Shown here in pieces: positions 2,108 to 11,682 of a DNA stretch of 64,000 bases. Numbering within the stretch: the stretch's first letter is position 1; each line of letters opens with the position of its first letter. Source of the DNA: Candidatus Poribacteria bacterium. Its GTDB lineage: Bacteria; Poribacteria; WGA-4E; WGA-3G. The notes beneath the pieces are model-generated. The model had not been told where the DNA came from, did no database searches, and worked only from the letters and a program-made list of their open reading frames with translations. The translations under genes and the position numbers were made by a program. The stretch is taken from NCBI GenBank assembly GCA_964291315.2, contig OZ219752.1, positions 299,968-363,967 of the forward strand, read 5' to 3'.

Positions 2108-2136
2108 TTGACAGAAACTATATTATCTCATAAATT
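2108..2136 (+). promoter_or_regulatory. Candidate sigma-70 promoter of the array
   Basis: TTGACA-N17-TAAATT, about 135 nt before the first paralog. Confidence 0.5.
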
Positions 2137-2270: not shown

Positions 2271-2975
2271 GTGTTGAAGCAACTGTTATCAGACAAGCGT
2301 ATTTTATGCGGTTTTATCTGTGTGTTGGTGCTGGTTGTTGGCGGCGTGGTATATGAGAGATCGGTGAAACAGCAAGCCCGCCGCGATATCCGACGCACTG
2401 AAAAGATCGTCAAAGAGAGGCAACGTCAGGAGACCGGCTCTCAGCCCACAGAGAGTGGTCACTACCATTCGGATGGAACATATCACACAGGCTCACATGA
2501 AGCACCGGCCGGCACGACTGCCCCGTCAGAAGAGGGTAAGAAGAGCGGTATAGCTCCTGAGCGTGTGATATGGACAGGCAAGCCCCTGCGTGAGGTGTCC
2601 GCACCCGATCCGCTGAGTCCCGCGGAGCGCAAAGCACGCAATGCGAAGATCCAAGCACTCAATATACAGATACAGAAACTCAGAGGCGTAACAGAAGCAA
2701 AAACCGTCGAGTGTGATGAACGCATTAAGGCATCTTCTAAAATCCTCAGGGAAAGGGAAGCAATCTCGGCAGAGCTGGACGCATTCCTCGTTGCAGAGGA
2801 TCGCACTGCGGAAGAACAAGCACGCTTTGATGCACTTTTAAAACAGTATTTAGAATTGCGCAACCTCTTTCATGAAAAGCACGCCATCGCTAAGCAAACG
2901 CTAGAAGAGAAGCGCACACTTCTTGAAAATCTCTATAGACTTGAAACGGATCGCGATGCGTTACGACGCCGATAA
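2271..2975 (+). CDS. Membrane-anchored His-motif/coiled-coil protein, paralog 1 of 7 (234 aa)
   Basis: N-terminal hydrophobic helix, GHYHSDGTYHTGSHE, conserved WTGKPLREVSAPDPL linker and a heptad-rich C-terminus. Confidence 0.85.
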   Translation: MLKQLLSDKRILCGFICVLVLVVGGVVYERSVKQQARRDIRRTEKIVKERQRQETGSQPTESGHYHSDGTYHTGSHEAPAGTTAPSEEGKKSGIAPERVIWTGKPLREVSAPDPLSPAERKARNAKIQALNIQIQKLRGVTEAKTVECDERIKASSKILREREAISAELDAFLVAEDRTAEEQARFDALLKQYLELRNLFHEKHAIAKQTLEEKRTLLENLYRLETDRDALRRR

Positions 2976-2987
2976 GGAGGCATGTTG

Positions 2988-3035
2988 ATGAAGCACAGAC
3001 GTATTGTAGTTGCAATAATATTAGGTTTGATGTAA
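2988..3035 (+). pseudogene. 15-codon stub MKHRRIVVAIILGLM*, a truncated signal-peptide-like remnant; also at 3793-3840, 4598-4645, 5401-5448 and 10892-10939
   Basis: Follows TAAGGAGG with the same 12-nt stop-to-ATG spacing as the 6206 gene, and aligns without gaps to its start MNRKYTVTVFLCGLF. Confidence 0.6.
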
Positions 3036-3075
3036 TGTAAAGTTTACGGACTTAACTGAAAAGGAGAAGGATGTA

Positions 3076-3780
3076 ATGTTGAAGCAACTTTTATCGGACA
3101 AGCGTATTTTAGGTGGGCTTATCTGTGTGTTGGTGTTGGTTGTTGCCGGCGTGGTATATGAGAGATCGGTGAAACGACAAGCCCGCCGGGATATACAGCG
3201 CCCTGAAAAGATCGTCAAAGAGAGGCAACCTCGGGAGACCGGCTCTCAGTCCGCAGAGAGTGGTCACTACCATTCGGATGGCACATATCACACAGGCTCA
3301 CATGAAGCACCGGCCGACACGACTGCCCCGTCAGCAGAGGGTAAGAGGAGCCGTATAGCTCCGGGAGATGTGATATGGATGGGCAAGCCGCTGCGTGAAG
3401 TGTCAGCACCCGATCCGCTGAGTCCCGCAGAGCGCAACGCACGCAATGCGAAAATACAAACACTCAATACACAGATACAGAAACTCAAACGCATAACAGA
3501 AGCACAGACCAACGAGTGGTTGGAACACCTTAAAAAATATCCTAAAATCAGCCGAGAAAAAAGGGCAATCTTGGCTGAGAAGGATAAACTCCTCGCTGTA
3601 GAAGATTGGACTGCGGAAGAACGAGCCCGCTATGACGCACTTTCAAAAAGGTTTGAAGAATTGAACGATCTAAGTGACAAAAGACGCGCTATCTCTGAGC
3701 AAATGCAGGAAGAGAACCTCCAGCTTCTTGAAAAGCGCGATGCCCTTGAAGCGGAACTGAGTGCCTTACGGCGCCGATAA
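3076..3780 (+). CDS. Paralog 2 of 7 (234 aa)
   Basis: Same architecture; AAGGAG RBS upstream. Confidence 0.85.
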   Translation: MLKQLLSDKRILGGLICVLVLVVAGVVYERSVKRQARRDIQRPEKIVKERQPRETGSQSAESGHYHSDGTYHTGSHEAPADTTAPSAEGKRSRIAPGDVIWMGKPLREVSAPDPLSPAERNARNAKIQTLNTQIQKLKRITEAQTNEWLEHLKKYPKISREKRAILAEKDKLLAVEDWTAEERARYDALSKRFEELNDLSDKRRAISEQMQEENLQLLEKRDALEAELSALRRR

Positions 3781-3880
3781 GGAGGGATGTTGATGAAACA
3801 CAGACGTATTGTAGTTGAAATAATATTAGGTTTGATGTAATGTAGCATTTACTAACTTAACTAAAAAGGAGAAGGATATA

Positions 3881-4585
3881 ATGTTAAAGCAATTGTTATC
3901 GGATAAGCGTATTTTATGCGGTTTTATCTGTGCTTTGGTGCTGGTTGTTACGTCGCTGGTGTATCAGGGATCTGTGAAACGGCAAGTCCACCGAGATATA
4001 CAACGCACTGAAAAGATCGTCAAAGAGAGGCAACGTCAGGAGACCGGCTCTCAGCCCACAGAGAATGGGCACTACCATTCGGATGGCACATATCACACAG
4101 GCTCACATGAAACACCGTCTGGCATGACTGCCCCGTCAAAAGAGGTTGAGAGGAGCGGTATAGCTCCTGAGAGTGTGATATGGACAGGCAAGCCGCTGCG
4201 TGAAGTGTCAGCACCCGATCCGCTGAGTCCTGCAGAGCGCAAGGCACGCAATGCGAAAATACAAGCACTCAATACTGAGATAAAGCAACTTGTGCGCGCA
4301 ACGCGGGCACACATGCACAAGTATAATGAACAAGTTGACAAATATCCCAAAATCAGGCAAGAAATAAAGGCAATCTCGACAGAGTTGGACACTTTCCCCG
4401 CTGCAGAGGATCGCACTACGGAACAACAGACACGCTATGACACCCTTTTAAAACGGTATTTAGAATTGGAGAACCTTGCTGACGAAGTTCTCACTATCGC
4501 AAATGAAATGCGGGAAGAGAGCCGCCAGCTTCTTGAAAATCTCGATCCACTTGAAACGGAGCTGAGTGCGTTACGGCGCCAATAA
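3881..4585 (+). CDS. Paralog 3 of 7 (234 aa)
   Basis: Same architecture. Confidence 0.85.
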   Translation: MLKQLLSDKRILCGFICALVLVVTSLVYQGSVKRQVHRDIQRTEKIVKERQRQETGSQPTENGHYHSDGTYHTGSHETPSGMTAPSKEVERSGIAPESVIWTGKPLREVSAPDPLSPAERKARNAKIQALNTEIKQLVRATRAHMHKYNEQVDKYPKIRQEIKAISTELDTFPAAEDRTTEQQTRYDTLLKRYLELENLADEVLTIANEMREESRQLLENLDPLETELSALRRQ

Positions 4586-4683
4586 GGAGGGATGTTGATG
4601 AAACACAGCCGTATTGTAGTTGAAATAATATTAGGTTTGATGTAGTCTATACTTCAGGAACTGAAAAGTAGGAGCATAACAAA

Positions 4684-5388
4684 GTGTTGAAGCGTCTATT
4701 ATCAAACAAGCGGATTTTGGGTGTGGTTGTCTGTGCTTTAGTGCTGGTTGTTGCCGGCGTGGTATATGAGAGATCGGTGAAACAGCAAGCCCAACGCGAT
4801 ATCCGACGCACTGAAAAGATCGTCAAAGAGAGGCAACGTCAGGAGACCGGCTCTCAGTCCGCAGAGAGTGGTCACTACCATTCGGATGGCACATATCACA
4901 CAGGCTCACATGAAGCACCGGCTGACACGACTGCCCCGTCAGAAGAGGTTGAGAAGAGCGGTATAGCTCCTGAGAGTGTGATATGGACGGGGAAGCCGTT
5001 GCGTGAGATTTCGGCACCCGATCCGCTGAGTCCCGCAGAGCGCAACGCACGCAATGCGAAAATACAAACACTCAATACACAGATACAGAAACTCAAACGC
5101 ATAACAGAAGCACAGACCAACGAGTGGTTGGAACACCTTAAAAAATATCCTAAAATCAGCCGAGAAAAAAAGGCAATCTCGGCAGAGCTGCGTGCACTCC
5201 GCGCTGCAGAGGATTGGACTGTGGAAGAACGAGCTCGCTATGATGCACTTTCAAAAAGGTTTGAAGAATTGGGCGATCTAATTGACAAAATTTTCTCCAC
5301 CTCTGATCGGATGCAGGAAGAGAACCTCCAGCTTCTTGAAAAGCGCGATGCCCTTGAAGCGGAGCGCGATGCGCTGCGGCGCCGATAA
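4684..5388 (+). CDS. Paralog 4 of 7 (234 aa)
   Basis: Same architecture; GTG/TTG start after a second spacer type. Confidence 0.85.
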   Translation: MLKRLLSNKRILGVVVCALVLVVAGVVYERSVKQQAQRDIRRTEKIVKERQRQETGSQSAESGHYHSDGTYHTGSHEAPADTTAPSEEVEKSGIAPESVIWTGKPLREISAPDPLSPAERNARNAKIQTLNTQIQKLKRITEAQTNEWLEHLKKYPKISREKKAISAELRALRAAEDWTVEERARYDALSKRFEELGDLIDKIFSTSDRMQEENLQLLEKRDALEAERDALRRR

Positions 5389-5488
5389 GGCGGAATGTTG
5401 ATGAAGCACAGACGTATTGTAGTTGAAATAATATTAGGTTTGATGTAATGTAGAGTTTACGCACTTAACTAAAAAGGAGAAGGATATA

Positions 5489-6193
5489 ATGTTAAAGCAA
5501 CTGTTATCAGACAAGCGTATTTTATGCGGTTTTATCTGTGTGTTGGTGTTGGTTGTTGCCGGCGTGGTATATGAGAGATCGGTGAAACAGCAAGCCCAAC
5601 GCGATATCCGACGCACTGAAAAGATCGTCAAAGAGAGGCAACATCGGGAGACTGGCTCTCAGTCCGCAGAGAATGGGCACTACCATTCGGATGGAACCTA
5701 TCATACAGGATCACATGAAGCACCGGCAGACACGACTGCGCCCTCAGGAGATGGTAAGAGGAGCAGTATAGCTCCTGAGCGTGTGATATGGACAGGGAAG
5801 CCGCTGCGTGAAGTGTCAGCACCCGATCCGCTGACTCCCGCAGAGCGCAAAGCACGCAATGCGAAAATACAAGCACTCAATACACAGATACAGAAACTCA
5901 GACGCATAACACAAGCAAAAACCGTCGAGTGTGATGAACGCATTAACGAAACTGATAAAACCCTCAGCGAAATCGATACAATCTCGGCAGAGCTGCGTGC
6001 ACTCCACATTACAGAAGATTCGACTGCGGAAGAACAAGCACGCCATGACGCACTTTTAAAACGGTATTTAGAACTGCACAACCTCGCCCGCGAAAGGAAC
6101 GTCATCGCTAAGCAAACGCTAGAAGAGAAGCGCGCACTTCTTGAAAATCTCGATGCTCTTGAAGCGAAGCTTAGCGCTTTACGTGGTCGATAA
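5489..6193 (+). CDS. Paralog 5 of 7 (234 aa), directly upstream of the large Cys/His protein
   Basis: Same architecture; its stop codon overlaps the TAAGGAGG RBS of the next gene. Confidence 0.85.
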   Translation: MLKQLLSDKRILCGFICVLVLVVAGVVYERSVKQQAQRDIRRTEKIVKERQHRETGSQSAENGHYHSDGTYHTGSHEAPADTTAPSGDGKRSSIAPERVIWTGKPLREVSAPDPLTPAERKARNAKIQALNTQIQKLRRITQAKTVECDERINETDKTLSEIDTISAELRALHITEDSTAEEQARHDALLKRYLELHNLARERNVIAKQTLEEKRALLENLDALEAKLSALRGR

Positions 6194-6205
6194 GGAGGAA
6201 TATCG

Positions 6206-9200
6206 ATGAACCGAAAATATACTGTAACCGTTTTTTTATGCGGTCTTTTTTGCCTCCACACAGTGGCGCTCGTGTTAGCTAACAATGAAGAGCGAACCCA
6301 ATCGCAGAAAGATGCGGAAAGTAAATATGCCCAAGCACTTGATGGTTATCAAGACGCTCAAATTGCTAGGGGGAATGTTAAGATTGATGTTAGAGCTTTA
6401 GAAATAACTAGAGGATTGCTACAGAAGGAGATAAGTGATGAAAAGTTGGCAGCGTACGGTACGGTGCTCAACACGGCGGTGGCCTTGCTCACTGGGGCGT
6501 CTGCGGCGACCATAGCAACGAGAACGGCCGCAGCAATTGTCATTGGCAAGAGTGTTTCTGATATGGTCCGGACAATCCGTGACGCGCTGAAGGAGAATAA
6601 GAAAGCCACGCTTCATAAGTTGAAGCAAGGAATGTATAACTTGGAGACAGAGCTAATAGAAAGGACGAAGGTGGTTCAAGATGAGGCAGCTGATGCTAAC
6701 AGCGAGTTAGATGCTTGGAAAGCCGTAGAGCCCGGTGCGACGTATGACAAAAAGCCACTTGATGAACGGTATATTGATGTCGAAACAATGCATCCGGACT
6801 ACACTCGGACGTTGCCGGATCCGCCGACGTATCGTTCCGACACGACGGAAACGATTGCGTGCCCTGCCTGTCGTGATCAGGTCAAGCCGCCATATTTGAC
6901 AAAGATAGTGGTTTTATCCCCTGGTCTGATTATGGGTATAGAGAAAACGGTCAAAAGGTATCGGGGTCATGAGGTCACGTGTGCAGAGACGCGTCACTCG
7001 ACAGGCAAAGCGTGTGATGGTGAGTATTATAGTTGCTTGTCTCCGTATTCGAGTGCTTCCATAGTTTGCCCGAATGATGCGGATCACCGAGTTGTTGGCA
7101 CGTGTGGTGAGCTCAAGGGCTCTAGGTTTAAGAAGCATGAGTATGCGAAGGGTTCGCCTGGGAATCATGGCAAGAAATTGAAGACTTGTGGTTCTATTGG
7201 TATGAGGTGGGAGCAATCCGATGGAACGGTCACACGGCAGGTATGTAAGATTAAGGTTTTTCCATGTGCGCCGGCGCATGGTCGGCATAATTGGGATCTG
7301 GTGTCTTTTAAGAAGCTATCACTGAATTTGGGTTCGGGCAGTAATTATATTTGTGCCAATTCCTCGTGTTCCATGAGCGGTAGCAGTTCATCGGGCGACG
7401 ATGAAGACGACGAGGACGATACCGCTGACAATACCCAGGGCGGTTCCGAATACGGTATGGGTATGGATGTGCGTTCGATAAACGGTAGCGGTTCGCCGAA
7501 CGTCCCTCATCGAGAACAGGTTGCTCGAGCGTTAGCGTCTCGGGCGTGGAGAGCTTTACATTGGAACCACTCCGTCTCGCTAGGTATCTCTGCTGCACCG
7601 GAGCAGACTACCTCGCCGCTGAAGTTATCGTATGAGCATCAGCGGGTGTGTTCAGAGGGGCATAAGTATTGGCTCTGTGATGCATCACAGAGGTTGGGGC
7701 ATGCCCAATTGGTGTGTAGTCGTTCGGCGTGCGGGCAGGCGTTCACGCAGTGTTCTAACCACAGCTCAGCGTGTGTCGGGGGTTGGCATACCGGGGGTGC
7801 CGGTGATTTTTCCGAGACAGCAGATGCCTTGGCGGTGGTGTGTGGTAACCCGCACCGCAGGGATGGTGCGTGTGCATATGGGGGTCAGACCCCCTCGGTG
7901 AATGCTCATCGGACGACGTGTCTGGCAGGTCATACATATTGGTCGTGTAATGCGCAGGCGGTCCTAACGCATAGCAAACATACAGCCCGGCTTGTTACGT
8001 GTGGCAACTCGAACGCTGGGGAAGGAGCGTGTTCACAGGGGCGTCAAGCCGTCTCGTTGAATGCTCATCAGACGACGTGTCTGGCGGGTCATACATATTG
8101 GTCGTGTAATCCCGTGGCAAAACAGACGCATTCCTCTCACACCGCCTCATCCGGCGAAGGTACGGATGCTCCTAATACGGTTCCTGCTCGGGCTCCTGCA
8201 CCTACTCCTGCGCGCCCTCCGACGGGAGATGGTGCGTGTGGCAACTCGAATGCTGGTGCGGGTGCGTGTTCTGTGGGAGGCAAGGCGCCGTCAGCGAATG
8301 CTCATCGGACGACGTGTCTGGCGGGTCATACGTATTGGTCGTGTAATGCGCAGGCGGTTATAACGCATAGCCGACATACTGCGCCGCTTGTTGCGTGTGG
8401 CAACTCGAATGCTGGTGCGGGTGCGTGTTCACAGGGAGGCCGAGTCGTCTCGTTGAATGCTCATCAGGTTCGGTGTCTGGCGGGTCATACATATTGGTCG
8501 TGTAATCCCGTGGCAAAACAGACGCATTCCTCTCATACCGCCTCATCCGGCGAAAGTGCAAGTCTTTCTAAGATATCTTCTATGCTACTCCTGACGGGAG
8601 ATGGTGCGTGTGGCAACTCGAATGCTGGGGATGGTGCGTGTTCTGCGGGAGGCAGGGCGCCGTCAGCGAATGCTCATCAGATTCGGTGTTTAGCAGGTCA
8701 TACGTATTGGTCGTGTAATGCGCAGGCGGTTGTAATACATAGCCGACATACTGCGCCGCTTGTTGCGTGTGGCAACTCGAATGCTGGTGCGGGTGCGTGT
8801 TCTGCCGGAGGTCAAGCCGTCTCGTTGAATGCTCATCAGGCGCGATGTCTGGCGGGTCATACGTATTGGTCGTGTAATCCGTTAGCAAAACAGACGCATT
8901 CCTCTCATACCGCCTCATCCGGCGAAGGTACGGATGCTCCTCATCTGGCTCCTGTGGCACCCGATCCTAAACCGTCTCGGGCGCCTGCACCTACTCCTGC
9001 GCGCCCTCCGACGGGAGATGTTGCGTGTGGCAACTCGAATGCTGGTGCGGGAGCGTGTTCTGCGGGAGGCAGGGCGCCTTCAGCGAATGCTCATCAGGTT
9101 CGGTGTTTAGCGGGTCATACGTATTGGTCGTGTAATGCGCAGGCGGTTGTAAGGCATAGCCGACATACTGCGCCGCTTGTTGCGTGTGGCAACTCTAACG

Positions 9201-10084
9201 CTGGGGATGGTGCGTGTTCACAGGGAGGCCGAGCCGTCTCAGCCAATGCTCATCAGACGACTTGTTTAGCAGGTCATACATATTGGTCGTGTAATGCCCC
9301 ATCGGTCCTAATGCATAGCAAACATACTGCCCCCGTGGTCTGTCCTGCGGATAGTTGGACGGATTGTGGTGGCACGGTATCACATGCGGCGACGTGTCCA
9401 GCGGGTCATTCGTATTACACGTGTAACTCATCGTCAGCGTCGACACATTCAGCACATACCGCTCCGCCGCCGCCACCCCCTCCGCCGGAGGATCCGGTTG
9501 TTTGTCCTGCGGATAGTTGGACGGATTGTGGTGGCACGGTATCGCATGCGGCGACGTGTCCAGCGGGTCATTCGTATTACACGTGTAACTCATCATCAGC
9601 GTCGACGCATTCAGCACATACCGCTCCGCCGCCGCCACCCCCTCCGCCGGAGGATCCGGTTGTTTGTCCTGCGGATAGTTGGACGGATTGTGGTGGCACG
9701 GTATCACATGCGGCGACTTGTGCGGCGGGTCATTCGTATTATACGTGTAACTCATCGTCAGCGTCGACACATTCAGCACATACCGCTCCGCCGCCGCCAC
9801 CCCCTCCGCCGGAGGATCCGGTTGTTTGTCCTGCGGATAGTTGGACGGATTGTGGTGGAAAGGTGTCACATGCGGCGACTTGTGAAGCTGGGCACGAGTA
9901 TTATACATGTAACTCGTCAGCAGCTTCGGAACATTCGGAACATACCGCTCCCGAACCGGCCTGCCCTGCAAGTAGTTGGACAGATTGTAGTGGGACCGGA
10001 ACGGAGCATAAGGCGAAGTGTGGTAGAGGGCATACGTATTACACGTGCAATTCTTCGGCGCTTAAGAAACACTCCAAGCATTAG
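6206..10084 (+). CDS. Large secreted Cys/His-repeat protein (1292 aa) with an N-terminal coiled-coil/hydrophobic segment
   Basis: Sec-type signal ending LVLA, an Ala-rich hydrophobic stretch at about aa 82-114, and 14 H-x3-C-x2-GH-x-Y[WY]-x-C-x7-H units with Pro-rich linkers. Confidence 0.85.
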   Translation: MNRKYTVTVFLCGLFCLHTVALVLANNEERTQSQKDAESKYAQALDGYQDAQIARGNVKIDVRALEITRGLLQKEISDEKLAAYGTVLNTAVALLTGASAATIATRTAAAIVIGKSVSDMVRTIRDALKENKKATLHKLKQGMYNLETELIERTKVVQDEAADANSELDAWKAVEPGATYDKKPLDERYIDVETMHPDYTRTLPDPPTYRSDTTETIACPACRDQVKPPYLTKIVVLSPGLIMGIEKTVKRYRGHEVTCAETRHSTGKACDGEYYSCLSPYSSASIVCPNDADHRVVGTCGELKGSRFKKHEYAKGSPGNHGKKLKTCGSIGMRWEQSDGTVTRQVCKIKVFPCAPAHGRHNWDLVSFKKLSLNLGSGSNYICANSSCSMSGSSSSGDDEDDEDDTADNTQGGSEYGMGMDVRSINGSGSPNVPHREQVARALASRAWRALHWNHSVSLGISAAPEQTTSPLKLSYEHQRVCSEGHKYWLCDASQRLGHAQLVCSRSACGQAFTQCSNHSSACVGGWHTGGAGDFSETADALAVVCGNPHRRDGACAYGGQTPSVNAHRTTCLAGHTYWSCNAQAVLTHSKHTARLVTCGNSNAGEGACSQGRQAVSLNAHQTTCLAGHTYWSCNPVAKQTHSSHTASSGEGTDAPNTVPARAPAPTPARPPTGDGACGNSNAGAGACSVGGKAPSANAHRTTCLAGHTYWSCNAQAVITHSRHTAPLVACGNSNAGAGACSQGGRVVSLNAHQVRCLAGHTYWSCNPVAKQTHSSHTASSGESASLSKISSMLLLTGDGACGNSNAGDGACSAGGRAPSANAHQIRCLAGHTYWSCNAQAVVIHSRHTAPLVACGNSNAGAGACSAGGQAVSLNAHQARCLAGHTYWSCNPLAKQTHSSHTASSGEGTDAPHLAPVAPDPKPSRAPAPTPARPPTGDVACGNSNAGAGACSAGGRAPSANAHQVRCLAGHTYWSCNAQAVVRHSRHTAPLVACGNSNAGDGACSQGGRAVSANAHQTTCLAGHTYWSCNAPSVLMHSKHTAPVVCPADSWTDCGGTVSHAATCPAGHSYYTCNSSSASTHSAHTAPPPPPPPPEDPVVCPADSWTDCGGTVSHAATCPAGHSYYTCNSSSASTHSAHTAPPPPPPPPEDPVVCPADSWTDCGGTVSHAATCAAGHSYYTCNSSSASTHSAHTAPPPPPPPPEDPVVCPADSWTDCGGKVSHAATCEAGHEYYTCNSSAASEHSEHTAPEPACPASSWTDCSGTGTEHKAKCGRGHTYYTCNSSALKKHSKH
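7841..9334 (+). repeat. Eight ~53-aa type-A repeats (CGNSNAG..C...AH...CLAGHTYWSC...H..H), arranged as four alternating pairs
   Basis: Visible in DNA and protein; 159-nt period within pairs (8237 to 8396). Confidence 0.9.
9335..10081 (+). repeat. Four 54-aa type-B repeats (CPADSWTDC...H...C.AGHSYYTC...; first three followed by P8) plus one diverged terminal unit
   Basis: 162-nt period (9341, 9503, 9665, 9827). Confidence 0.9.
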
Positions 10085-10097
10085 GCGATTTCTTTGA

Positions 10098-10131
10098 GAA
10101 CAAAGCCTTGTTTTTCAGTAGGGCTTTGTTC
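10098..10131 (+). terminator. Stem-loop after the large gene (terminator or mRNA-stability hairpin)
   Basis: GAACAAAGCC...GGCTTTGTTC; no clear U-tract on the + strand. Confidence 0.45.
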
Positions 10132-10174
10132 AAAAGGAGGCAAAGCGAGTGCCTAATATTAAGGGGATGACGTA

Positions 10175-10879
10175 ATGTTGAGGCATCTATTATCAAACAA
10201 GCGGATTTTGGGTGTGGTTGTCTGTGCTTTAGTGCTGGTTGTTGCCGTCGTGGTGTATCAGGAAACGGTGAAACGGCAAGCTCACCGCGATATACAACGC
10301 ACTGAAAAGATCGTCAAAGAGAGGCAACGTCAGGAGACCGGCTCTCAGCCCACAGAGAATGGGCACTACCATTCGGATGGCACATATCACACAGGCTCAC
10401 ATGAAACACCGTCTGGCATGACTGCCCCGTCAAAAGAGGTTGAGAGGAGCGGTATAGCTCCTGAGAGTGTGATATGGACAGGCAAGCCGCTGCGTGAAGT
10501 GTCAGCACCCGATCCGCTGAGTCCTGCAGAGCGCAAGGCACGCAATGCGAAAATACAAGCACTCAATACTGAGATAAAGCAACTTGTGCGCGCAACGCGG
10601 GCACACATGCACAAGTATAATGAACAAGTTGACAAATATCCCAAAATCAGGCAAGAAATAAAGGCAATCTCGACAGAGTTGGACACTTTCCCCGCTGCAG
10701 AGGATCGCACTACGGAACAACAGACACGCTATGACACCCTTTTAAAACGGTATTTAGAATTGGAGAACCTTGCTGACGAAGTTCTCACTATCGCAAATGA
10801 AATGCGGGAAGAGAGCCGCCAGCTTCTTGAAAATCTCGATCCACTTGAAACGGAGCTGAGTGCGTTACGGCGCCAATAA
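10175..10879 (+). CDS. Paralog 6 of 7 (234 aa)
   Basis: Identical to paralog 3 from about codon 39 onward; N-terminus resembles paralog 4. Confidence 0.85.
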   Translation: MLRHLLSNKRILGVVVCALVLVVAVVVYQETVKRQAHRDIQRTEKIVKERQRQETGSQPTENGHYHSDGTYHTGSHETPSGMTAPSKEVERSGIAPESVIWTGKPLREVSAPDPLSPAERKARNAKIQALNTEIKQLVRATRAHMHKYNEQVDKYPKIRQEIKAISTELDTFPAAEDRTTEQQTRYDTLLKRYLELENLADEVLTIANEMREESRQLLENLDPLETELSALRRQ

Positions 10880-10977
10880 GGAGGGATGTTGATGAAACAC
10901 AGCCGTATTGTAGTTGAAATAATATTAGGTTTGATGTAGTCTATACTTCAGGAACTGAAAAGTAGGAGCATAACAAA

Positions 10978-11682
10978 GTGTTGAAGCGTCTATTATCAAA
11001 CAAGCGGATTTTGGGTGTGGTTGTCTGTGCTTTAGTGCTGGTTGTTGCCTTCGTGGTGTATCAGGGATCAATGAAACAGCAAGCTCACCGCGATATCCGA
11101 CGGACTGAAAAGAGCATCAAAGAGAGGCAACCTCGGGAGACTGGCTCTCGGTCTGCAGAGAGTGGGCACTACCATTCGGATGGGACATATCACACAGGCT
11201 CACATGAAACAACGTCTGGCACGACTGCTCCGTCAGCAGAGGGTAAGAGGAGCGGTATAGATCCTGAGCGTGTGATATGGACGGGCAAGCCGCTGCGTGA
11301 GGTGTCCGCACCCGATCCGCTGAGTCCAGCAGAGCGCAAGGCACGCAATGCGAAGATCCAAGCACTCAATACAGAGATCGAGCAACTCTGGCGCGTAATA
11401 GAGGCACAAACCGTCGAGTGGAATGAACACGTTGATAAATATCCTAAAATCAGCCGAGAAAGAAGAGCAATCTTAGCAGAGATGAACGCCCTCCCTACTG
11501 CACAGGATTGGACTGCGGAAGAACGAGCTCGCTACAACGCACTTTCAAAAAGGTTTGAAGAATTGGACGATCTAAGTGACAAAATTTTCTCTACCTCTGA
11601 TCGGATGCAGGAAGAGAATCGCCTGCTTCTTGAAAAGCGCGATGCCCTTGAAGCGGAGCTGAGTGCGTTACGGCGCCAATAA
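10978..11682 (+). CDS. Paralog 7 of 7 (234 aa)
   Basis: Same architecture; not followed by the stub. Confidence 0.85.
   Translation: MLKRLLSNKRILGVVVCALVLVVAFVVYQGSMKQQAHRDIRRTEKSIKERQPRETGSRSAESGHYHSDGTYHTGSHETTSGTTAPSAEGKRSGIDPERVIWTGKPLREVSAPDPLSPAERKARNAKIQALNTEIEQLWRVIEAQTVEWNEHVDKYPKISRERRAILAEMNALPTAQDWTAEERARYNALSKRFEELDDLSDKIFSTSDRMQEENRLLLEKRDALEAELSALRRQ

Follow-up and report, generated by a model that had tools for sequence, protein, structure and literature searches.

Lif (PF03280), the lipase-specific foldase, is a private chaperone that is anchored in the membrane and serves lipases secreted by the type II route. Its N-terminus provides the anchor, from which a flexible linker leads to a periplasmic domain made of helices only; it is single-copy and not known to be polymorphic. 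A second group to be considered is that of polymorphic toxin/immunity loci with arrays of orphan genes, among the examples of which one account treats CDI (cdiA-CT/cdiI), Rhs and T6SS effector-immunity islands (PMC3482391). We analyzed a 64,000-nt stretch of the genome of an apparent sponge symbiont (Candidatus Poribacteria), hereafter the window, which carries a locus that can be compared with both. Like polymorphic toxin loci, it contains a secreted protein with an adjoining small cognate gene. Their variable, predicted interacting parts are contiguous on the DNA between conserved flanks, and tandem extra small genes with divergent binding parts are accompanied by partner relics and recombination mosaicism. 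Indeed, a variable region beside a cognate small gene and orphan copies were both found here. The polarity is reversed, with the secreted protein varying at its N-terminus and the small gene located upstream. In polymorphic systems the immunity gene is usually downstream of the toxin gene and without a shared conserved module, whereas the putative binders of the window are upstream and have one. This upstream position and shared module fit a machinery-docking adaptor equally well. Unlike polymorphic toxin loci, no known toxin or trafficking domain was recognized here. The features of the locus are as follows.

2108..2136, + strand: promoter-like site (TTGACA-17-TAAATT) upstream of copy 1, 10/12 hexamer matches, a consensus match only
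2271..2975, + strand: anchor-binder copy 1 (234 aa; ORF list, alignment)
2976..3035, + strand: stub 1, a ribosome-binding site and 15-17-codon relic, matching the copy 5/large-gene junction at 37/62 nt without gaps
3076..3780, + strand: anchor-binder copy 2 (234 aa; ORF list, alignment)
3781..3840, + strand: stub 2, 37/62 nt identical to the copy 5/large-gene junction
3881..4585, + strand: anchor-binder copy 3 (234 aa; ORF list, alignment), 3' half the same as that of copy 6
4586..4645, + strand: stub 3, 36/62 nt identical, in a spacer identical to the one after copy 6
4684..5388, + strand: anchor-binder copy 4 (234 aa; ORF list, alignment)
5389..5448, + strand: stub 4, 37/62 nt identical
5489..6193, + strand: anchor-binder copy 5 (234 aa), coupled directly to the large gene and used for the fold and complex models
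6206..10084, + strand: secreted partner (1292 aa) with signal peptide, helical N-domain, Cys-rich region and 14 Cys/His modules
6290..6421, + strand: partner helix 1 (residues 29-72), predicted binder contact (interface residues 29-67 in the complex model)
6437..6550, + strand: partner hydrophobic Gly/Ala/Thr-rich helical hairpin (residues 78-115; predicted helices 78-96 and 100-112, low pLDDT)
7613..10081, + strand: 14 Cys/His modules (1 + 8 type A + 5 type B) separated by Pro-rich linkers
10175..10879, + strand: anchor-binder copy 6 (234 aa; ORF list, alignment)
10880..10939, + strand: stub after copy 6, 36/62 nt identical
10978..11682, + strand: anchor-binder copy 7 (234 aa; ORF list, alignment), without a stub behind it

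As stated in the preliminary description, seven intact genes of exactly 234 aa each in the ORF list share the + strand, five before and two after a signal-peptide gene of 1292 aa. Their starts are spaced 803-805 nt inside each of the two runs, and the 1292-aa ORF starts 12 nt beyond the stop codon of copy 5. The 650 nt upstream of copy 1 (1620-2270) are free of ORFs other than short ones of at most 71 aa, and the number of promoter-like sites was 14, with 10.6 expected from shuffles. The seven small proteins aligned over 234 columns without indels (mean column identity of 80%), residues 63-77 (GHYHSDGTYHTGSHE) being invariant in all copies and W101, G103-E108 and S110-L115 being conserved across them, so that the invariant motif, conserved linker and lack of indels described earlier were recovered. 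The conserved N-terminal module (N-module) of these proteins consists of the membrane anchor and an HxHxDGTxH motif. For copy 5, AlphaFold2 (mean pLDDT of 76) predicted an N-terminal helix that includes the membrane segment (residues 2-55) and, at the His motif, a small beta hairpin; residues 76-106 form a disordered linker to a confident helical hairpin (117-171 and 180-233, pLDDT mostly >90). A fold search returned target-normalised TM-scores of up to 0.79 over ~115 residues, and 0 of at least 500 counted matches (E≤10) reached E≤0.001. Solved helical hairpins (colicin E2 receptor-binding domain, p85 iSH2, EmrA hairpin, PspA/Vipp1) resemble the binder in their long antiparallel two-helix shape, with 12-20% identity, a generic shape match and not homology. 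Models of the WXG100, LXG and Lap families gave no match at E≤1, the fold search yielding generic hairpins only, and neither the small nor the large protein matched Pfam, NCBIfam, PADLOC, PHROGs or PDB sequences. A membrane segment was detectable in 97 family members; in 82 of these, the N-terminal flank was more positive than the C-terminal one, and the segment started at a median of residue 9 in the family. In the window's copies more K/R follow the membrane helix, which makes the charge rule ambiguous for them; the C-terminal domain is probably periplasmic.

Apart from copies 3 and 6, the last 300 nt were 67-88% identical between copies, for which the term hypervariable, used previously, is too strong. 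Copies 3 and 6 were 100% identical over these 300 nt. Hence, the array encodes six distinct hairpins, not seven. It is a mosaic, in which identical spacers precede copies 4 and 7, and copies 4, 6 and 7 resemble one another by 90-93% in their 5' ends. The dS between copies was 0.2-0.6, yet all seven are intact and of equal length, and the whole 4.4-Mb genome contains copies of this subfamily at this array only. The spacers after copies 1, 2, 3, 4 and 6 carry a ribosome-binding site and a relic of 15-17 codons that is colinear with the 5' end of the large gene, a partner-start stub thus being retained behind five of the six copies without the large gene directly after them. Because of these stubs the extra copies look like orphans, which agrees with the suggested amplification of the binder beside one partner, as does a similar array in another genome (G044). 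There, a single partner of 400 aa sits among five binder paralogues, the last of which is followed by a partner stub; the N-terminal parts of the paralogues are 84-100% identical and their C-terminal parts 64-68% identical among three types. The G044 array is an independent parallel to the orphan array of the window.

The start of the large protein is signal-peptide-like. Its 14 Cys/His modules match CxxGHxY[YW]xC and each contains four Cys and four to five His, and the module region holds near-identical internal tandem repeats of 159, 372 and 162 nt (162 nt x 3.8 at 93%). Pfam returned 0 families at E≤1 for this protein, confirming that no Rhs, CdiA, VgrG, LXG or WXG signature is recognizable, and NCBIfam and PDB sequences gave 0 matches. 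No toxin, pore-former or enzyme domain was recognizable in these three resources. Of what characterizes polymorphic toxins, the 1292-aa protein thus presented neither a trafficking domain (Rhs/YD, CdiA/haemagglutinin repeats, PAAR/VgrG, LXG, WXG) nor a toxin domain in its variable end, the N-domain being without a family match. The N-domain was poorly modeled (mean pLDDT of 49), and for this reason the partner is at most putatively membrane-active. Helix 1 was the least conserved part of the partner, with 28, 14 and 22% identity to three relatives vs 23-62% elsewhere. Searches with the whole protein and with residues 1-465 detected no second homologue of the N-domain in the genome. The Cys/His modules had 79 relatives, two of which carry a precomputed PF08291 annotation; the repeats were present in 13 of 60 congeners, and the N-domain of the window's partner in only 2 of 60. 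In the genome G022, the counterpart of the large protein is split into two genes (384 and 500 aa). Together with the PF08291 annotations, a match to Peptidase_M15_3 (E 1.3e-4, below cut-off) suggests that some partners in other cassettes bear a cell-wall peptidase signature.

A series of 14 small Cys/His modules joined by Pro-rich linkers, and containing near-identical repeats, is typical of extended extracellular proteins. The large protein could be an adhesin or host-binding fibre for which the small proteins would serve as membrane docks, the variation then coming from phage or sponge-host pressure and not from strain conflict. The restriction of the family to sponge-associated Poribacteria and the long disordered linker between the binder's membrane part and hairpin would suit such a tether. 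We consider it improbable, as an inner-membrane dock cannot hold a protein beyond the outer membrane unless the partner is periplasmic or envelope-spanning, orphan docks would be useless without a ligand, and it is the binder/partner contact that varies, whereas the exposed repeats are conserved.

The complex model of the copy 5 hairpin with partner helix 1 had an ipSAE of 0.85 (runs 0.88, 0.85 and 0.85) vs 0.00 for the best control, the controls being unrelated natural proteins and not helical decoys, and coiled coils docking easily. The runs agreed in at least 79% of contacts, with a partner pLDDT of at least 86. Of 80 solved complexes, 58 attained this ipSAE mark, as did 2 of 110 mismatched pairs; these figures hold only roughly because our own alignments were used. 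The model supports binding of the copy 5 hairpin to the partner's first helix, in agreement with the interaction foreseen in the preliminary description for the N-terminal part of the large protein. The contact set was derived from this model and largely corresponds to the exposed face of the hairpin, which is expected to vary anyway. Contact positions were more variable among the seven copies (1.13 vs 0.61 bits, Mann-Whitney p=1.6e-4). Their codons had a median pairwise omega of 1.44 (>1 in 10 of 15 pairs) and a pooled pN/pS of 1.17, compared with 0.52 and 0.57, respectively, for the 55 other helical codons. Over the whole hairpin, omega was 0.55-1.06, not clearly diversifying and compatible with relaxed constraint; only the predicted contact codons exceeded 1. 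At two loci of G022, the partners are identical over residues 1-118 (one of them is interrupted) and the upstream binders differ at many hairpin positions; one-to-one co-variation of binder and partner is therefore not strict.

A search with a profile of the N-module identified 483 representative clusters (E≤1e-3). The module invariably formed the N-terminus, in proteins that measure 90-514 aa and whose C-termini vary across the family. Of 176 genomes sampled in the phylum, 93 contained the module, in numbers of up to 30 each; it was found in 91 of 111 genomes of one family (f1) vs 1 of 64 in other families. A fresh sample of 20 anchor genes comprised 12 with a complete Cys-rich signal-peptide gene immediately downstream, 3 for which this gene was truncated and 5 that lacked it. 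A homologue of the small protein lies directly upstream of a homologue of the large-protein N-domain in G022 (two loci) and at G050/L057; at L056, only a fragment resembling large-protein residues ~470-500 was found, further downstream. Across loci, the C-terminal class of the binder and the N-terminal class of the partner change together. These adjacencies, together with 15 of 20 anchor genes in the wider family, sustain the two-gene module of the earlier interpretation, which the binding model and the orphan-like copies support as well; strict pairing was not supported, adjacency being frequent but not invariable, and neither was clear diversification of the whole hairpin. The locus is one member of a cassette family spread across f1 and not confined to this site. 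This gene-pair family is large and undescribed, and has so far been observed almost only in one family of Candidatus Poribacteria.

An anchor, a linker, a helical periplasmic domain and an adjoining client gene, as in Lif, are all found in the cassette (with a presumed topology). As for Lif, the neighbouring gene encodes the protein that the binder is predicted to embrace, and related cassettes may use a type II-like route via GspC-like genes. Unlike Lif, the partner here is not a lipase and there are seven binder copies in six variants; PF03280 matched neither copy 1 nor copy 5, and only 1 of 123 family members, weakly (E 2.6e-4). A private, Lif-like export chaperone or adaptor would hold its cognate partner in the periplasm and pass it to a secretin-based (type II-like) machine on which the N-module docks, the extra copies providing dosage or being redundant. 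A conserved N-module and a variable partner-binding C-domain are what such an adaptor needs, and the copy 5 binding model fits it equally well. Many cassettes include a GspC-like gene (~200 aa), which adjoins the binder in G022, G050/L057, L011 and L056 and follows the partner in L012, L063, L065, L066 and L068. It scored E 3.4e-5 with T2SSC (Pfam; 24.1 vs a cut-off of 27) and E 5.5e-8 with GspC_delta (NCBIfam; 32.9 vs 150). The window's genome has one secretin and one GspE-type ATPase ~12 kb apart, and sub-threshold echoes in the family include GspL_C, whose weak matches (E 3.6e-4 and 0.01; on a relative, 20.9 bits vs a cut-off of 29.6) fall on the membrane segment, as well as Lipase_chap and OmpH, each weakly in 1 of 123 members. 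Still, we judge the adaptor unlikely. Every type II-related match fell below curated cut-offs, GspC, GspL and GspM models giving none above them and none at all for the window's copies. The GspC-like gene is absent from the window's array, the genome's only one being on another contig, and six of the seven copies are without their own partner gene in a genome where no other N-domain homologue was found. Variation concentrated at the predicted contact face would also be odd for redundant chaperones of one substrate.

The G-H-x-H-x-D residues and a later H of the N-module are invariant or nearly so across the family, one relative (P0150) consists of four to five repeats of the motif alone, and every Cys/His module has four Cys and four to five His. 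Both motif and modules could bind metal ions, the anchored proteins being ECF-linked sensors or regulators, and ECF sigma genes do lie upstream of the anchor gene at L012, L014, L020, L024, L025, L063, L064, L067 and L068. We find a role in metal handling or ECF-sigma signalling very unlikely, given that the nearest sigma-like match in the window's own genome is ~70 kb from the array and that a cytoplasmic tip of ~9 residues is too short for an anti-sigma domain. Neither a cytoplasmic anti-sigma domain nor an adjoining sigma gene was found here, no metal-binding family was matched in Pfam or NCBIfam, and an invariant motif leaves the variable hairpin and the orphan array unexplained.

We tentatively prefer to see the locus as a polymorphic cassette of binder and secreted partner, extended by an array of orphan binders, that would act in the manner of immunity or a holdase. 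Gene 1 would encode a small inner-membrane protein whose conserved module starts with a cytoplasmic tip of ~9 residues, crosses the membrane once as a helix and continues with a charged helix and the HxHxDGTxH beta hairpin. This module would hold a variable C-terminal domain, here a 115-residue helical hairpin, in the periplasm. The product of gene 2, directly downstream, would be Sec-exported and carry a variable N-terminal domain ahead of conserved Cys/His-rich modules; at this locus the domain is predicted to consist of two long helices with a hydrophobic hairpin between them. The gene 1 hairpin would clamp the first helix encoded by gene 2, so that the coding sequences of the two variable, interacting parts lie side by side, with conserved sequence on both sides, and would form a cassette swappable by recombination. 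The live pair in the window would be copy 5 and the large gene. The other six copies would be orphan binders, probably derived by tandem duplication of the binder plus the first ~16 partner codons and then reshuffled by gene conversion. The binder may cap the amphipathic/hydrophobic N-domain of its partner at the producer's own membrane, as an immunity-like holdase, and the orphan copies may broaden the range of neighbour-strain partner alleles that the cell can neutralise. We infer this neutralising function, and likewise any harmful activity of the partner.

These gene pairs may let related strains distinguish each other's secreted proteins. A broader and somewhat unlikely possibility is that Poribacteria possess an undescribed, recombination-ready self/non-self system. 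It would comprise dozens of cassettes per genome, in which an anchored binder with the conserved HxHxDGTxH module and a secreted effector with conserved Cys/His-rich carrier modules would meet via variable domains whose coding sequences adjoin. The effectors would be routed through a single secretin by private GspC-like proteins, and orphan arrays, like the seven-copy array described here, would represent an immunity library against the effectors of the many Poribacteria strains that share the sponge. If true, the binder, the effector N-domain and the carrier module would all be new families.

The ORF listing agreed with the preliminary description of seven co-oriented genes for a 234-aa membrane-anchored protein (the binder, copies 1 to 7) around a single gene for a 1292-aa secreted protein (the partner), arranged as follows:

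Starts at 2271, 3076, 3881, 4684 and 5489, + strand: binder copies 1 to 5, each exactly 234 aa
6206-10084, + strand: large gene encoding the partner, 1292 aa, starting 12 nt past the stop codon of copy 5
Starts at 10175 and 10978, + strand: binder copies 6 and 7, each exactly 234 aa

The claimed absence of indels among the binder copies was borne out by a gap-free protein alignment, with a mean column identity of 80%. Residues 63-77 (GHYHSDGTYHTGSHE) were identical in all seven copies, a W-x-GKPLRE-x-SAPDPL stretch was kept across them, and the substitutions lay mostly beyond residue 135. No further copies of this binder subfamily were found elsewhere in the genome (4.4 Mb in 4 contigs). The 650 nt 5' of copy 1 contained short ORFs only (≤71 aa) and one promoter-like site.

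Modeling of the small protein with AlphaFold2, using 14 homologues (mean pLDDT 76), predicted these elements:

Residues 2-55: N-terminal helix including the membrane segment
Residues 63-65 and 71-73: two-strand hairpin exactly at the HxHxDGTxH motif (His motif)
Residues 76-106: disordered linker
Residues 117-171 and 180-233: antiparallel helical hairpin, confidently predicted

A Foldseek search of this model against the PDB returned 0 matches at E ≤ 0.001 and generic hairpins only. According to the charge rule, 82 of the 97 family members with a clear membrane segment are oriented N-in/C-out, the window's own copies being ambiguous. Such an anchored protein might serve as an envelope tether, a reading that we consider unlikely. 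An anti-sigma reading of the anchor protein was rejected on account of its too-short cytoplasmic tip and the lack of a sigma gene nearby.

The partner begins with a signal-peptide-like sequence, and its residues 1-400 were modeled poorly by AlphaFold2 (pLDDT 49). Four helices (3-72, 78-96, 100-112, and 117-174) were present in this weak model, in which the two short ones (78-96 and 100-112) would form a Gly/Ala/Thr-rich hydrophobic hairpin. They are followed by a Cys-rich region and then by 14 modules matching CxxGHxY[YW]xC, arranged as tandem repeats within the gene, with units of 159, 372, and 162 nt. Window positions 9341-9951, inside the large gene, hold 3.8 tandem copies of the 162-nt unit (93% identity), which are the type B Cys/His modules with their poly-Pro linkers; the module number likely varies between strains. 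The N-domain of the partner was rare: it was found in 2 of 60 congeners (related genomes of the same genus), and a length-limited search of 5.8 billion clustered proteins gave a single relative. The Cys/His part had 79 relatives and was present in 13 of the 60 congeners. Two of these relatives carried a precomputed PF08291 assignment.

Neither protein matched anything above chance in Pfam or NCBIfam, and only chance-level matches were obtained with PADLOC and PHROGs (LmuB, E 0.0059; one unknown phrog, E 0.0078). ESM Atlas gave no usable match for the small protein or for residues 1-400 of the large one, nor did PDB sequences yield anything meaningful against the profile of the conserved N-terminal part of the binder (the anchor module, comprising membrane anchor and His motif) or against the Cys/His part. 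The large protein had no homology pointing to toxic activity. A full-text search of the published literature, judged from abstract-level results, found no description of these proteins.

We then considered whether the two proteins interact. The complex predicted for large-protein residues 26-200 and copy 5 residues 108-234, with an alignment supplied for each, had a median ipSAE of 0.85 (runs 0.88, 0.85, and 0.85) vs. 0.00 for the best of three controls. Among solved complexes, 58 of 80 attained this mark, as did 2 of 110 mismatched pairs, although this calibration is only rough here given the custom alignments. At least 79% of the contacts were common to the runs, with a partner pLDDT of at least 86, in a type of model where helices dock easily. 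Both hairpin helices (131-169 and 187-225) clamp partner helix 1 (29-67) in the modeled interface, and the prediction supports binding of this helix by the hairpin of copy 5. Three independent observations fit such an interface. The binder contact positions, a model-derived set that overlaps the exposed hairpin face, were more variable among the seven copies (1.13 vs. 0.61 bits, p = 1.6e-4). The contact codons had a median pairwise omega of 1.44 (>1 in 10 of 15 pairs) and a pooled pN/pS of 1.17, after removal of copy 6, which duplicates copy 3 in the hairpin part; the corresponding values for the other helical codons were 0.52 and 0.57, and omega over the whole hairpin was 0.55-1.06. Finally, in each of the three available relatives, no segment of the partner was less conserved than helix 1.

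The array is a mosaic. Copies 3 and 6 were 100% identical over their last 300 nt, 98.7% over nt 105-330, and 75% over the first 105 nt, while the 98 nt preceding copy 4 were identical to those preceding copy 7 and the 5' ends of copies 4, 6, and 7 were 90-93% alike. These identities indicate a recent duplication, or conversion, into copies 6 and 7 of the stretch extending from within copy 3 into copy 4. Between copies, dS was about 0.2 in codons 36-135 vs. 0.2-0.6 in codons 136-234, and the lower value of the conserved half fits its homogenisation. The spacers of about 100 nt after copies 1, 2, 3, 4, and 6 all open with one shared stop codon and GGAGG. Next comes a reading frame of 15-17 codons that matches the copy 5/large-gene junction colinearly and without gaps, at 36-37 of 62 nt; no such stub was found 3' of copy 7. 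This colinearity with the partner start defines the repeat unit as one binder plus the first ~16 codons of the partner. The extra binder copies are orphans of a former pair: the window has six of them, all intact, besides a single live pair. Contigs from four sequencing runs, three from one study and one from another, were compared with the array, over which they are short and fragmented. Joints skipping 805 or 3291 nt among them hint that forms with a different copy number exist; these joints were not counted as evidence, each being a single contig with a shorter side of 39-45 nt and 85% likeness.

Among small-protein homologues in congeners, only the first ~87 residues were widely conserved. 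A profile of this anchor module, built from 23 sequences, matched 483 representative clusters at E ≤ 1e-3 and 198 at E ≤ 1e-10 (of 1.84 billion representatives), invariably at the N-terminus of proteins of 90-514 aa. The module occurred in 93 of 176 sampled genomes of the phylum: of 111 genomes in one family (f1), 91 had it, compared with 1 of 64 in other families. Individual genomes had up to 30 matches, and the genome studied here had 21 (E ≤ 1e-3). No recurrent C-terminal domain emerged from a Pfam scan of 123 family members. The His motif itself is repeated in some of them: P0150 (154 aa) consists approximately of a membrane segment and 4-5 motif copies, and P0008 has two, so that the motif looks like an autonomous small unit, possibly metal-binding. 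Outside the window, the same genome has a second tandem array (L062, C4:1673500-1690500) comprising nine or more membrane-anchored paralogues of 252-332 aa, with two subtypes in alternation. These have the N-terminal portion of the module (membrane segment and helix) in common, lack the His motif, and have no Cys-rich partner between them.

The preliminary description had also proposed that binder and partner form an adjacent two-gene module. In genome G022, two contigs share the order GspC-like gene, anchor variant, 183-aa secreted protein, small-protein homologue (239 aa), 384-aa homologue of large-protein residues 1-382, and 500-aa Cys/His-repeat protein, indicating that the 1292-aa gene of the window equals two genes there. 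Two different binders in this genome precede partners identical over residues 1-118, one of the partners being interrupted, which is a caveat for the predicted interface. The same adjacency was seen in G050 (locus L057); at locus L056, only a fragment resembling large-protein residues ~470-500 was found, further downstream. In a sample of 20 further anchor genes from eight genomes, at loci not used to form the pairing idea, the gene directly downstream was a full signal-peptide Cys-rich gene (14-30 Cys) in 12 cases and a truncated one in three. Adjacency therefore stood for 15 of the 20 genes and failed for the five without a partner. Across loci, the C-domain class of the anchor protein switches together with the N-domain class of the downstream secreted protein, and the partners retain their Cys-rich C-terminal parts. 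A similar array of another subtype was observed in G044 (L063, C2:1431500-1442500), where five anchor paralogues (200-206 aa) surround a GspC-like gene and a single Cys-rich partner of 400 aa. The paralogues share 84-100% identity in their N-terminal parts and fall into three C-terminal types (64-68% mutual identity), and behind the last of them the partner-gene start recurs as a stub. In G076 (L064, C1:1436000-1454000), five or six different anchor/partner pairs stand in a row behind an ECF sigma gene, four partners having the same Cys-rich C-terminal tail and differing N-domains. This row is interrupted by a transposase-like gene.

Other features of these loci were also noted. Chimeric ORFs at L049 (9740-10291 and 11006-11641; G022:C17) and L050 (9158-9712) fuse a partner-family N-terminal helical part to the last ~20-45 residues of a GspC-like protein, and their sequences suggest recombination scars inside cassettes. 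A conserved, unannotated membrane peptide of ~62 aa with a CPYP...CPY tail (L014 1261-1452, L025 1157-1345, L057 975-1349) lies between ECF sigma and anchor genes or before the GspC-like gene. At L014, L020, and L025, the anchors have a different, HEAT-like-looking C-domain, and the secreted partner encoded downstream is beta-rich and matches Peptidase_M15_3 below threshold.

The cassettes repeatedly contain GspC-like genes, with T2SSC and GspC_delta matches below threshold, and ECF sigma genes; neither kind is found near the window's array. The genome encodes one secretin and one GspE-type ATPase. The binder could accordingly be a private export chaperone or adaptor coupled to the secretin pathway, to which we assign a rather low probability; a role in metal handling or sigma signalling appears very unlikely. 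We tentatively favor an immunity-like holdase, at somewhat less than an even chance. The coding sequences for two variable parts, the binder C-domain and the partner N-domain, directly adjoin each other and are flanked by those for the conserved anchor module and the conserved Cys/His modules, respectively. Polymorphic toxin/immunity loci have this layout of a swappable cognate cassette too; here the polarity is reversed and the proteins are unrelated. The protein families and the polarity are new, and the logic resembles that of known polymorphic systems.

Poribacteria are abundant, uncultured sponge symbionts with many co-resident lineages. The gene-pair family is found in 91 of 111 sampled genomes of one of their families, yet none of the libraries searched annotates it. 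Should the binders be immunity-like, the family would represent a new polymorphic conflict or recognition system of reversed polarity, with three new protein modules and a clean layout that joins the two interacting variable parts in one swappable cassette. Should they be private chaperones, the family would provide a rare example of adaptors that are specific to their substrates and serve a secretin-based pathway. Under either reading, the predicted hairpin/helix interface would offer a simple, testable specificity code, for which the seven natural binder variants in one genome are a ready-made panel.
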